A stretch of DNA of 35,960 nucleotides from a virus (taxonomy: Duplodnaviria > Heunggongvirae > Uroviricota > Caudoviricetes): the IMG/VR virus record IMGVR_UViG_2541047842_000004; one strand, given 5' to 3'. Under the pieces are notes generated by a model. The model searched no databases. It was not told the origin of the DNA and worked only from the letters and a program-made list of their open reading frames with translations. Every line of letters begins with the position of its first letter. Position 1 is the first letter of the stretch. Positions 5,565-9,927 of the stretch are shown here, piece by piece. Made by a program: the position numbers and the translations under genes.

Positions 5565-7271
<1,707 letters not shown>

Positions 7272-7361: not shown

Positions 7362-7670
7362 TCATCTCGCCGTCAGTTGTTTTGATTTCCGGTAGCCTGC
7401 CGCGTAAATAGCTACGTTTGGCAGGCAAACACTTCCACTGCATTCATCTACTTTCTTGCAGCGAAGGCTTCCGAGTGATATTGCTTTTTCAGAAAGGCTT
7501 AACCGCTTTCTCGGGTCTTCCTGAACAGGTTCCTCACTGTCTGTGCCGAAGATCGAATCGATGATGTTGCAGATGGAATCACGCTCGATGGCCAGCTTTC
7601 TGCGCCGCTCATGACGGCGAGTTTTGGCATTTCCTGCAAATGTTGATTTTCCGTACACGATTACCGTCAT
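7362..7670 (-). CDS. N: Antitermination protein N homologue (P22 gp24-type)
   Basis: 102-aa product from ATG at 7670: MTVIVYGKSTFAGNAKTRRHERRRKLAIERD..., with an arginine-rich N-terminal motif; resembles P22 gene 24 protein as I recall it, not lambda N; sits just downstream of nutL. Confidence 0.8.
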   Translation of the reverse strand: MTVIVYGKSTFAGNAKTRRHERRRKLAIERDSICNIIDSIFGTDSEEPVQEDPRKRLSLSEKAISLGSLRCKKVDECSGSVCLPNVAIYAAGYRKSKQLTAR

Positions 7671-7788
7671 GATGTTTTCCTCATGTGAAATGGCTTTGGT
7701 GGTGATGCGCCAGATGCTGATCTTCTGGTTGCTGTCGTTACTGCTGCAATTCACATCACCCCAAACCCATCTCGTTTGGTATCTGTTC

Positions 7789-7823
7789 GCGCTTTGTCAG
7801 CGCATCATCGAAGTTAAAGAGCC
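7789..7823 (-). promoter_or_regulatory. nutL (boxA-like plus boxB hairpin)
   Basis: Minus strand reads ggctctttaa cttcgatgat GCGCTGACAAAGCGC: a boxA-like element followed by a GCGC/tgacaaa/GCGC hairpin, the P22-type boxB as I recall it. Confidence 0.6.
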
Positions 7824-7870
7824 TGCCAATCTGTTCCGTTTGGCTGCCAGCGTCCTGCTGATGGCGATTA

Positions 7871-7931
7871 TAATGAACCAATAGTTCGATATTATCAAGA
7901 ACTATAAGTACGAATTGTTTGTGGTTCATTA
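7871..7931. promoter_or_regulatory. Nested inverted repeats in the presumed pL/OL region
   Basis: taatgaacca (7871-7880) pairs perfectly with tggttcatta (7922-7931); inside, atagttc (7881-7887) pairs with gaactat (7899-7905); an AGTACGA heptamer at 7907-7913 is shared with the OR region. Confidence 0.3.
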
Positions 7932-8080
7932 ACTTAATGAGATATGTTTTTGATATGTAAAGGAATTTATTTTTGTAAAGATTGAAGATTGGTCAGTAGG
8001 AGAGAAAGAATTGTTTGCTGGCGTGTTAGTTCGTGGGTTAGCACATGTGCGGATGTTAAATAAGGTAGACGATCGTGAGG

Positions 8081-8106
8081 AAAAGAAAAACCGGCGCTGA
8101 GGCCGG
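8081..8106 (-). terminator. Putative rho-independent terminator ending the cI-orf299 transcription unit
   Basis: Minus strand: hairpin CCGGC-ctcagc-GCCGG followed by TTTTTCTTTT, 7 nt downstream of the orf299 stop. Confidence 0.45.
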
Positions 8107-8112
8107 GTATAA

Positions 8113-9012
8113 TTATTTGATTATTTCTTTTATAAAGACTTCTTTCGGTTGGTATTTTTTATCTGATGATTTGAGCTGGTACGTTATTGTTATATCAGCA
8201 CGTACAGAAAATTTACCTGCAAAATCTGATGGGTTTACGTTGGGGCCAAGAACCATATTTACTCTTCGATCTATTAATCCAGGGATAACAGCAGCCCAAC
8301 CTTTCTCTGGATTGTCGAGGTCTAATGCACGGATTTCAACATCAACATCAAAATGATCCTGAGTATATGACTCTGGTGTGAAGACAACTTCAGTTGGGGC
8401 TTTTTTAATGGTTTCAGCGGGAATGGTCACTGTACCACCCCCTGTACCTATGACCATCGTAGATCCTTCGTCTGCCCTAGCTGGGGCAAGCGTCTTAATG
8501 GAACTTTTGGCAAGAGTCTTCTTATTGGTTACCGTGCTTTCTATGATTGCTTGAAGACGGTCAGGTGAAATATTAGCCTCACCGGCACCAATATTGATGA
8601 TTGTATTGTTATTTGCTTCAAAGTGGGAGGTGTTGCTTGGAGCCATAGCCTTAGTTGCTAGAACTAAGCCATATCCAACCAGACCAATAACAACAGCACC
8701 AACGAGAGCGTTTCTCATTTTCCCATTTCCGATCTTTGCATGAGCGCCAGCAAGAAACTTGTCCATTTCTTCTTGGCTACCAAAGAGGAGTTTAATAACA
8801 ATATCTTCATAAAGGCTTCCTGCTTCTAATCGCGCAACATGCACCGATATATCAAGGATATTAGCCCCTGTCAGTTCCTGCAAAACACCTTCTGATTGTT
8901 TTGCGATGGCCTCCCACCCTTGAAGGGAGGTAATCACATCTTTGATGCTTACAGGTTCTTTAGTTGAATAATATATGTTTTCGGTAAAGGTTAAAGATAA
9001 TTCTTGGGACAT
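8113..9012 (-). CDS. Uncharacterised 299-aa predicted single-pass membrane protein in the rexAB slot downstream of cI (candidate exclusion/defence gene)
   Basis: Long ORF with GAGG Shine-Dalgarno about 6 nt upstream of ATG 9012; one strongly hydrophobic segment near residues 100-124 (ALVGAVVIGLVGYGLVLATKAMA); coding region visibly AT-rich compared with flanking cI and structural genes; followed by a terminator; no match to any protein I can recall. Confidence 0.75.
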   Translation of the reverse strand: MSQELSLTFTENIYYSTKEPVSIKDVITSLQGWEAIAKQSEGVLQELTGANILDISVHVARLEAGSLYEDIVIKLLFGSQEEMDKFLAGAHAKIGNGKMRNALVGAVVIGLVGYGLVLATKAMAPSNTSHFEANNNTIINIGAGEANISPDRLQAIIESTVTNKKTLAKSSIKTLAPARADEGSTMVIGTGGGTVTIPAETIKKAPTEVVFTPESYTQDHFDVDVEIRALDLDNPEKGWAAVIPGLIDRRVNMVLGPNVNPSDFAGKFSVRADITITYQLKSSDKKYQPKEVFIKEIIK

Positions 9013-9141
9013 CCGAGCCCTCGCTGTTTCTTTCGATTTGCTGTGTTAAGCTAATATTTTAATATCCATGTTTCTGTTTGCTTGCAGTGTGTTTCTCACC
9101 ACCATCCAAACGTACTGGTTACTAGCTATGTGATGATGAAG

Positions 9142-9849
9142 TCATGAACTTTTCAGCCATTCCCTGGCCTCGATGTCATCTAGGTGGCGAGATTGCTTCA
9201 GAATACCAGCTACATACTCCACCTTTGCTACTTGATGATAAGGCAACGTTATTGGCCTGTGGTCTTGGTTGATGCTTGTAAATTGGTATTCTCCGTCTCT
9301 GTCATAGCCAAGAACCTTGATCATGTTGTGCCCTTCAATGGTTCTGACAAACACCTCATCACCTGGGAATACTTTGGTGTTAGGCTCAATGAGTACATAT
9401 TCTCCTGATTTTATTCTGGGCCACATGCTGTCTCCTTTTACACGAAGACCAAAGGCATCTGGATCATCGCTATAAATCTTGAGCCACCCATCGCGCTCTT
9501 CGGTCATCTCGATGGCACCATCAACACCAAGAATTGCCTCACCAACCACGCGCACTAACCCTTTTTTTAATTTGCCAACAATTGAAAAAGTATCTTCATC
9601 ATTCGCTCCATTTAACGAAGTGCCGTGCTGAAGCCAAACAACATCAACGTTTAGAAATTTCGCAAGCGCATTCATTTTTTCCTGGCGTGGTAAAGACTCA
9701 GCATTAAACCATTTGCTAACGCCTTTGGACGAAAGAGAAAGGGCACGGGCTATGGCCATTCCCCTACCATGTTCATCAAGACCAGCTTCTTTACAGGCTT
9801 GCGCTAGCCGCTGGGCGAATTCTTTGCGCACTTTTTCATTCTGAACCAT
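9142..9849 (-). CDS. cI: CI-type prophage repressor (N-terminal HTH plus C-terminal S24 LexA-like autopeptidase domain)
   Basis: 235-aa protein; C-terminal domain contains the GDSM serine motif and a downstream lysine (MIKVL) typical of LexA/CI autocleavage domains; divergently oriented to cro; sequence differs from lambda CI. Confidence 0.9.
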   Translation of the reverse strand: MVQNEKVRKEFAQRLAQACKEAGLDEHGRGMAIARALSLSSKGVSKWFNAESLPRQEKMNALAKFLNVDVVWLQHGTSLNGANDEDTFSIVGKLKKGLVRVVGEAILGVDGAIEMTEERDGWLKIYSDDPDAFGLRVKGDSMWPRIKSGEYVLIEPNTKVFPGDEVFVRTIEGHNMIKVLGYDRDGEYQFTSINQDHRPITLPYHQVAKVEYVAGILKQSRHLDDIEAREWLKSS

Positions 9850-9927
9850 GAGTACGATACTAAAGCACTTGCAAAAACTTTCAGTTCAACCATAATGCGT
9901 ACTGAAAGTACGAAAAAGGACATTCCT
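9850..9927. promoter_or_regulatory. OR operator / pRM-pR divergent promoter region between cI and cro
   Basis: 78-bp cI-cro spacer containing AGTACGA heptamers (9851-9857, 9907-9913) and an inverted repeat actttcagt (9877-9885) / actgaaagt (9901-9909). Confidence 0.5.

Follow-up and report, generated by a model that had tools for sequence, protein, structure and literature searches.

The interval behind the repressor gene of a prophage is among the most productive sources of anti-phage genes, with Rex, Stk, Hex, and BstA as cases in point. What, then, is the role of a gene that occupies this interval and encodes a protein without a name? We addressed this question for the 35,960-nucleotide (nt) virus record IMGVR_UViG_2541047842_000004 (Caudoviricetes; this entire stretch of DNA is hereafter called the window), in which an open reading frame (ORF) for a 299-amino acid (aa) protein, located at 8113..9012 on the minus strand, directly follows the cI repressor gene. 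Within the immunity region of a lambdoid prophage, this ORF appears to form an accessory cassette (‘moron’) that is complete in itself. Genes that are cotranscribed with cI from the pRM promoter are, typically, exclusion genes, namely, lambda Rex, 933W Stk, and 434 Hex (PMC3564112), and mosaicism is known to be concentrated in the cI-N interval, where BstA is encoded, too (PMC8585504). Given these precedents, we consider it probable that the gene is anti-phage in one way or another, a function that we infer from position only. Among the specific mechanisms, a block of genome entry at the level of the envelope is the one we tentatively favor, and it ranks ahead of Rex-like abortive infection.

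The slot between cI and the pRM terminator

The ORF (the coordinates include the stop codon) starts with ATG, is preceded by a Shine-Dalgarno sequence, GAGGG, at 9022..9018 on the minus strand, 5 nt ahead of the ATG at 9012 by direct reading of the sequence, and encodes a member of the PHROG 4506 family. Thus, the initial annotation was correct in describing a 900-nt ORF on the same strand as cI and directly downstream of it, with a GAGG ribosome-binding motif of its own. This is a real, well-conserved gene and not a chance ORF, given that full-length homologs are detected at 20–98% identity and that the AlphaFold2 model of the product reaches a predicted local distance difference test (pLDDT) score of 93.3.

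The surroundings of the gene closely follow the lambda plan. The cI gene (9142..9849, minus strand) encodes a 235-aa protein that matches HTH_3 and Peptidase_S24. Exact matches to the three operators annotated in the record of phage 933W, oR3 (9842–9856), oR2 (9874–9888), and oR1 (9898–9912), together covering 9842..9912, are located in the pRM/pR region between cI and cro. On the other side of the ORF, an intrinsic-terminator-like hairpin (8091–8106), followed by a T-run (8081–8090), is present at 8106..8081 on the minus strand, so that the terminator predicted immediately after the stop codon is indeed found there; the hairpin consists of a 5-bp, all-G/C stem and a 6-nt loop, followed by TTTTTCTTTT, with a folding energy of -9.1 kcal/mol (z = -1.7). 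Downstream of this terminator and upstream of the N gene (7362..7754; PF25694), there are two OL-like operators (7874–7888 and 7898–7912) and a pL-like promoter match (7898..7870, minus strand), within 7870..7912. The order of elements along the minus strand is, accordingly, OR/pRM, cI, the ORF, the terminator, OL/pL, and N. With the OL-like sites at 7874–7912 on one side, cI/OR on the other side, and the ORF co-directed with cI and followed by a terminator, the proposal that the gene resides in the slot of lambda rex is borne out.

Comparison with 933W-type phages delineates the element. A segment of 1006 bp, 8108..9113, has no counterpart by blastn in those phages of this type that share both cI and the OL region with the window. 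The similarity to 933W is 94% from 9114 rightwards, with the DNA identity of cI to the 933W-type cI in the range of 94–97%, and 73% at 7850–8107, a shared block that stops at the hairpin annotated in the 933W record as ‘tM, terminator for the pM transcript’, the counterpart of the terminator at 8106..8081. In 933W, four genes fill the same interval, namely, those for a DUF3024 protein, a RuvC-like protein, and the Stk kinase, together with a 54-aa ORF; Stk is made from the cI transcript and renders HK97 infection abortive (PMC3564112). The two phages thus resemble each other in the flanks, that is, cI and the homologous tM terminator/OL region, and in the cassette boundaries, which fall at the same points; unlike the flanks, the content is wholly different, with a single 299-aa membrane protein and no kinase or nuclease motif in the window. 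With shared flanks and no 933W counterpart of 8108–9113, this is a clean exchange of one cassette for another, the stk-containing cluster, at a defined site that extends from the 3’ end of cI to the pRM terminator.

The presence or absence of 8108–9113 with sharp boundaries between homologous phages is the behavior expected of a moron. A moron is also expected to bring its own terminator; the hairpin at 8081–8106 is present, yet it lies in the flank that is common with 933W and could therefore be part of the slot and not of the cassette. The base composition, which had been cited as evidence of horizontal acquisition, differs only modestly: the ORF has a GC content of 41.2% compared with 45.3% for cI, 48.6% for N, and 50.5% for the whole window, and a GC content at third codon positions of 32.7% compared with 41.5% for cI. 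The coding region is AT-rich, as stated in the initial annotation, but this trend is common to the whole immunity region, the neighboring cI and cro included.

The 129-nt leader between the cI stop codon and the start of the ORF (9013..9141, minus strand), within which the 933W homology stops (9113/9114, blastn), had been suggested to hold an internal promoter. The leader is there, but it contains no sigma-70-like match at the scan threshold, at which a weak or activator-dependent promoter might escape, and shows neither significant RNA structure (z = 0.26) nor an Rfam match. No terminator-like site was found in the scan between cI and the ORF, which makes read-through from the cI transcript the simplest reading. 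We infer that the gene is cotranscribed with cI and expressed in the lysogen: transcription from pRM would read through cI and the ORF as far as the hairpin at 8091–8106 and, being closed by this hairpin, would yield the product in the lysogen and not from pL.

Distribution and genomic context of the family

The stretch 8000–9900, cassette included, is 100% identical in 11 records of lambdoid coliphages, including Jouyvirus 1H12 and the Lambda_ev series. At an identity of at least 99%, the cassette is present in 150 of the 5426 complete Escherichia coli genomes (about 3%), among them the enteropathogenic E. coli reference strain E2348/69. The cI type of the window was identified in 615 E. coli genomes, 150 of which carry the cassette; the cI allele itself, again at an identity of at least 99%, is found in 151 E. 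coli records, a number nearly equal to that for the cassette. The Shiga toxin phages have a cI in common with the window and lack the cassette, matching only from 9114 rightwards. All the annotations found give the product as ‘hypothetical protein’. The E2348/69 copy (locus L002, 6033–6803) is 99.5% identical, with an N-terminally shortened annotated product of 257 aa; in strain EECO1006 (hits H46/H86), the gene is split by an IS1 element; and the protein cluster also includes several fragments of 79–141 aa. Together, these cases indicate that the gene is inactivated occasionally.

The family extends far beyond the coliphages. The protein matches the PHROG 4506 profile (‘unknown function’) from end to end (E = 1e-170; residues 1–299 against positions 1–300 of 300), and a profile search of 1.84 billion representative proteins yielded 662 clusters, defined at 50% identity, at E ≤ 0.001, and 286 at E ≤ 1e-30. 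The clusters listed each consist of proteins of about 300 aa that match over the entire length, that is, a single architecture, and no domain fusions were detected either among the 662 clusters or in word-indexed searches of 5.8 billion proteins; the homologs retrieved by the latter searches carry no Pfam domains or informative names. Family members come from Enterobacterales (Escherichia, Salmonella, Klebsiella, Citrobacter, Kluyvera, Leclercia, Edwardsiella, Pectobacterium, Serratia, Yersinia, and Lonsdalea), from Pseudomonas, and from Betaproteobacteria (Accumulibacter, Zoogloea, Cupriavidus, Nitrosomonas, Dechloromonas, and Pandoraea), and also from Methylocaldum, Sedimenticola, Motiliproteus, and one Desulfuromonadales genome.

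The description of the protein as unrecognized holds in the sense that it has no named domain and no characterized relative, and has to be amended in that PHROG already lists the family, as number 4506, and many public genomes encode it. Scans of the window protein against Pfam, NCBIfam, and PADLOC (2023 version) gave nothing above noise, and the same scans of 136 family members gave nothing above noise except for one recurring match, to the PADLOC candidate PDC-S42 (see below); a few PycTM and 2TM profile matches involve single members only, near E = 0.003–0.01. The proteins of known structure in the PDB yielded nothing below E = 0.3 in an hmmsearch with two family profiles, and a Foldseek comparison of the first AlphaFold2 model (pLDDT 83) with the PDB yielded nothing at E ≤ 0.001, with weak M16-peptidase-like matches at TM-scores below 0.2. 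The BFVD fold search with this model retrieved two uncharacterized phage proteins, one of them with DUF6575. Thus, across Pfam, NCBIfam, PADLOC, and the PDB, no characterized homolog was detected, including any with a role other than defense, and neither Pfam nor PHROG indicates a virion or lysis family for the window protein. As initially proposed, the protein is not RexA, RexB, or SieB, having no sequence or fold similarity to RexA or RexB and no match to the SieB profile (PF14163), and it is devoid of an obvious nuclease, ATPase, or protease motif, with the Pfam and NCBIfam scans empty in this respect. We detected a weak, colinear match to PHROG 3243 (293 positions; E = 0.004). The name ‘Baseplate protein J-like domain-containing protein’, which UniProt gives to the Kluyvera intermedia member P0014 (A0ABX3UIR1), was considered and dismissed: Pfam scans at E ≤ 10 were empty for P0014 and nine other members, the Baseplate_J profile is not matched by the window protein either, and the name looks like an annotation artifact. 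No paper was found by protein accession (WP_000076840, YP_009909541) or under phrog_4506, which leaves room for a description under another name, and there was no match to the protein in the DefensePredictor supplements.

The genomic context was analyzed, with neighbors predicted by a simple ORF caller, in 76 loci that carry the gene, grouped into 34 lineages at 80% protein identity. A cI-type S24 repressor is encoded upstream on the same strand in 13 lineages and a short helix-turn-helix (HTH) repressor in 3 more, that is, in at least 16 of the 34. Among the 52 distinct immediate upstream neighbors, 17 match HTH_3, 15 Peptidase_S24, and 7 Phage_CI_repr. These repressors are only 20–30% identical to the window cI and, consequently, the linkage reflects the role of the neighbor and not the descent of one gene lineage. 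In Pectobacterium, the homologs follow an HTH repressor of 128–130 aa on the same strand; in a Pseudomonas phage, cI is followed by one gene and then by a homolog that is 24% identical to the window protein and is a full-length family member (hhalign probability 100%). In this phage, vB_PaeS-D14C (locus L009, 3597–7310), a 157-aa ORF, the homolog, a 180-aa ORF, and a YafO-type toxin gene lie behind cI on one strand and form a multi-gene accessory cluster in the same slot.

Other copies are in places unlinked to a repressor: Q and the lysis genes flank the gene in Edwardsiella-type prophages, the head protease gene adjoins it in Mu-like elements of Accumulibacter and Pseudomonas, and in Serratia it comes after the primase gene of a P4-like or primase island. 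One such island, in Serratia fonticola (locus L008, 8194–12909), encodes AlpA, AntA, and a DUF927 primase, and the homolog there is followed by three large ORFs of 847, 598, and >824 aa, which have no recorded Pfam family and could be another cargo system. Apart from repressors, no neighbor recurs across the 34 lineages, so there is no conserved partner gene; the PHROG matches of the neighbors are mostly to repressors and regulators, and the PADLOC matches to HTH regulators and methyltransferases only. Thus, on the question of whether homologs recur in the cI-N slot, at least 16 of the 34 lineages have the gene behind a repressor, and other copies occupy other accessory-gene slots. Such neighborhoods are typical of an accessory gene of temperate phages that stands alone, is portable, and strongly prefers the repressor operon.

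Protein architecture and candidate functions

The AlphaFold2 models, which improved from pLDDT 83 with 34 sequences to pLDDT 93.3 and a predicted template modeling (pTM) score of 0.86 with 136 sequences, consist of a domain at residues 1–95, a hydrophobic helix (100–123), further helices (125–179), and a beta-rich domain (186–297). The N-terminal alpha/beta domain (residues 1–95; 8728..9012, minus strand) has the predicted secondary structure beta-alpha-beta-beta-alpha and includes the conserved residues Y15, S29-L30, G65-S66-L67, and F77. The hydrophobic helix (residues 101–121; 8650..8712, minus strand) reaches a Kyte-Doolittle mean of up to 2.24 over 19 residues, is Gly-rich, with G115 conserved in 89% of the sequences, and has a Tyr/Trp-rich C-terminal end; it matches the one strongly hydrophobic helix noted initially at about residues 100–124. 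Just after it lies the most conserved motif of the protein, A-N-N-N-T-I-I-N-I-G-A-G-E (residues 133–145; 8578..8616, minus strand), which is invariant or nearly so in the alignment A1 and retains the majority residue at most positions across the 136 diverse members. The C-terminal beta-rich domain (residues 186–299; 8116..8457, minus strand), delineated from the model and the conservation, contains P206, R228-A-x-D231-x-D233, G238-W239, R250, and D273; P177 is conserved, too. The composition of the protein (Ile 9.4%, Thr 7.4%, Gly 7.7%) is in line with the richness in Thr, Gly, and Ile reported for its C-terminal part.

The topology is, somewhat more likely than not, that of a single-pass protein with the N-terminus in and the C-terminus out. 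A single hydrophobic span is present in 116 of the 136 family members, with a median uncharged stretch of 19 residues; there is no signal peptide in the protein; Lys and Arg are more numerous in the N-terminal than in the C-terminal flank (3.1 compared with 1.2; the excess is on the N-terminal side in 110 of the 136 sequences); and the frequency of Cys falls about 3.7-fold from the part before the span to the part after it. It is this combination of the single span, the missing signal peptide, the positive-inside charge bias, and the depletion of Cys after the span that favors the N-in/C-out arrangement. Residues 126–146, which include Glu, His, and several Asn, are by sequence far too polar to cross the membrane alone. 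The prediction that the protein is membrane-anchored by one span is supported, while the model is hard to fit to the N-in/C-out topology: at pTM 0.86, the whole chain is modeled as one rigid body, which is unexpected for domains parted by a membrane. We also considered natural variants composed of the helix and the C-terminal domain as a proof of a signal anchor and rejected them, as they are 5’-truncated genes at a prophage edge or a contig end and still show in-frame remnants of the preceding helix.

If the envelope-level mechanism is adopted, the product would be an inner-membrane protein with the 95-residue alpha/beta domain in the cytoplasm, helix 101–121 across the membrane, and the remaining approximately 175 residues in the periplasm. 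The periplasmic part, which would carry the ANNNxIINIGAG motif and the beta-domain with RAxDxD, GW, and Arg250, would hinder the tail tip or the ejection proteins of an incoming phage, or the inner-membrane channel of the host through which these act, such that the genome of the other phage is kept out of the cytoplasm. This would be superinfection exclusion by a single protein without a partner gene, and the resident prophage would be spared because its own DNA is already inside. The envelope block is favored since the larger, motif-rich part of the protein is probably periplasmic and since neither a partner gene nor an enzymatic motif is found.

There are precedents for such a mechanism. HK97 gp15, T4 Imm, and lactococcal Sie2009 are inner-membrane superinfection-exclusion proteins that act alone and block genome entry, and several inner-membrane exclusion proteins are expressed from the prophage beside the repressor. 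P22 SieA, likewise prophage-encoded, is one more inner-membrane superinfection-exclusion protein of this kind (PMC10883804). The protein analyzed here resembles all four in being a phage- or prophage-encoded membrane protein that would work alone; it differs in that those proteins are, mostly, smaller and narrowly distributed, whereas it is about 300 aa long, has two well-conserved globular domains, and is spread over several proteobacterial classes. No sequence relationship to SieA, gp15, Imm, or Sie2009 was detected in profile searches.

The systems that share the position of the gene differ from it in other ways. RexB of lambda is a four-pass membrane protein. The window gene has the slot and the orientation of rexA and rexB (it follows cI, ends at a terminator, and has OL/pL on the far side), is dispensable accessory DNA as they are, and encodes a membrane protein as does rexB; in contrast to the two-gene, sensor-plus-channel design of Rex, it is one ORF without a conserved partner, and its product has a single hydrophobic span, not four. 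BstA, from the Salmonella prophage BTP1 and relatives, is also encoded by one gene directly downstream of diverse prophage repressors with its own Rho-independent terminator, and is highly expressed in lysogens; however, BstA is a cytoplasmic protein that localizes to sites of phage DNA replication (PMC8585504), and the window protein shows no homology to it and no PADLOC match. Hex of phage 434 is another accessory product of the pRM transcript, synthesized alongside the repressor, and it confers an exclusion phenotype (PMC3564112). It is, however, small and soluble, hinders RecA-stimulated cleavage of the repressor, and has no membrane segment and no homology to the window protein. In sum, the gene resembles rexAB, stk, and bstA in position and presumed expression and, by all comparisons made, is a member of none of these families.

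The one recurring defense-related match is that to PDC-S42 (PDLC05015), which to our knowledge is a computational candidate only, without experimental support. The match is colinear over about 200 residues in family member P0182 (residues 31–247 against profile positions 23–227; E = 5.9e-6), is seen in 2 of the 136 members in all, and is absent from the window protein itself; PDC-S42, too, consists of one gene, its profile, at 302 positions, is about as long as the window protein, and no mention of it was found in the literature. This weak link is a lead rather than membership, and it suggests a wider superfamily that would include a computational defense candidate.

Several observations weigh against the envelope block. 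Proteins known to block injection are usually small, evolve fast, and have a narrow distribution, and this family is conserved from Enterobacterales to Nitrosomonas and Desulfuromonadales. The N- and C-terminal globular parts are about equally conserved among the 136 members, and a simple periplasmic blocker would not need an N-terminal domain maintained to this extent. In the Mu-like phages, the gene lies among head genes, where expression in the lysogen is not obvious. No defense genes were found within two genes of the family members in the 34 lineages, and no similarity to validated defense or exclusion proteins was found for the window protein or the 136 members in PADLOC. Finally, the one-rigid-body model at pTM 0.86 is hard to square with a membrane between the two domains; should both of them be cytoplasmic, there could be no periplasmic block.

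The same model fits better with a Rex-like abortive infection built into one polypeptide, in which the globular domains, both on one side of the membrane, would sense infection, and the hydrophobic and Asn-rich helices would oligomerize or insert to make the inner membrane leak, such that the infected cell ceases to support phage growth. The slot is that of rexAB and of the abortive infection kinase Stk of 933W; the most conserved polar stretch, ANNNxIINIGAG, comes directly after the Gly-rich hydrophobic helix with its conserved G115, as would be expected if it lined or gated a pore; and the broad taxonomic spread agrees with an effector whose target, for example, the membrane, is universal. 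Against this stand the polarity of residues 126–146, too high for them to span the membrane alone, the positive-inside and Cys statistics, which favor a plain single-pass N-in/C-out protein, the lack of similarity to RexB or other known membrane effectors beyond the PycTM and 2TM matches of single members, and the lack of a recognizable sensor-type domain, and we consider abortive infection of this kind rather unlikely. A related scenario, to which we would give only a minor share of belief, is a new transmembrane immune module, widespread and consisting of a single protein with a fold absent from solved structures. Its periplasmic domain would detect penetration by the tail or ejection proteins and would signal via the juxtamembrane Asn-rich motif to the cytoplasmic N-terminal domain or to the membrane itself, after which either genome entry would be blocked or the cell would shut down; such a module would be a portable cassette of lambdoid, Rac-like, and Mu-like phages and satellites across Proteobacteria.

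The gene might instead have a function that is mainly not defensive, encoding an accessory protein of the lysogen that tunes prophage maintenance or induction like 434 Hex, signals the state of the envelope to the lysis-lysogeny switch, or changes the envelope to the benefit of the host. The tight, repeated linkage is to the repressor gene and not to defense genes; a cytoplasmic domain, a membrane helix, and a periplasmic domain, with both sides conserved, make up a transmembrane signaling architecture; and Hex, cotranscribed with cI, lowers spontaneous induction (PMC3564112). Yet, the repressors ahead of the gene are mutually unrelated (S24 type and short HTH type), and the family is also found in slots unlinked to repressors (Q-to-lysis, Mu-like head region, and primase island), a poor fit for a protein that works with a particular repressor, while the inner-membrane anchor speaks against a surface-exposed virulence factor; on balance, such a role seems unlikely. 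More improbable by far is a role in the phage’s own lytic cycle, such as that of a membrane-anchored helper of lysis timing or morphogenesis, which could be suggested by the head protease gene next door in the Accumulibacter and Pseudomonas Mu-like elements and by the Q-to-lysis location in Edwardsiella-type prophages. Here, as in about half of the lineages, the gene follows cI, lies upstream of pL/OL, and ends in a terminator of its own, so that it would be transcribed in the lysogen and not from lytic promoters; closely related phages with the same cI are entirely without the gene, which makes it dispensable for lytic growth; and no virion or lysis family is matched. Exclusion at the envelope, therefore, remains the reading that we place first, on the tentative terms given above.

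Other features of the prophage and implications

By sequence comparison, the prophage is essentially phage 1H12 (Jouyvirus). Its integrase end, at 1–1143 of the window (locus L011, 756–3262), is that of a lambdoid prophage located beside icd in strain WP8-S17-ESBL-12; the icd site is also the site of e14 and phage 21. Compared with the otherwise 100% identical WP8-S17-ESBL-12 prophage and with phage 1H12, the window contains an insertion of about 1.2 kb at 6078–7271, with a 338-aa ORF (6109–7125) that, presumably, encodes a transposase of the IS5 type. This insertion sits between N and the rest of the leftward operon and, because of this placement, may be polar on cIII, kil, gam, bet, exo, xis, and int. 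It also removes the 3’ end of a gene of the SieB superinfection-exclusion family (5565..6104, plus strand; PF14163, E = 2.6e-25; PHROG 1301), the product of which is 179 aa here compared with 193 aa. Judging from these matches, the prophage holds a second, recognized exclusion gene near the immunity region, truncated by the insertion in this copy. A plus-strand ORF at 7669–7884, antisense to pL/nutL and overlapping the 5’ end of N, is annotated in RefSeq as a 71-aa hypothetical protein; it is probably not a real gene, although consistently annotated. Another lambdoid prophage at the icd site, the protective NC-SV of E. coli NC101, is reported to limit virulent phages via a small RNA at the 3’ end of cI (PMC12803456). 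If NC-SV carries the 299-aa gene downstream of cI, this gene could contribute to the protection.

The class of locus analyzed here is already known, and a specialist would expect a defense gene in it; what is new is the protein family. Several hundred sequence clusters from Gammaproteobacteria, Betaproteobacteria, and beyond have so far had no name, no domain assignment, and no structural relative, and the value of the locus lies in a common, conserved, and structurally novel family and in the precise 1.06-kb segment that carries the gene here. If, instead of defending the lysogen, the protein signals to the lysis-lysogeny switch, this would be a different and also interesting result. If it excludes phages, a new protein family, probably with a new fold, would join the single-gene defenses, would account for part of the so far unexplained phage resistance of lysogens, and would be of relevance for phage therapy against E. 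coli and its relatives.

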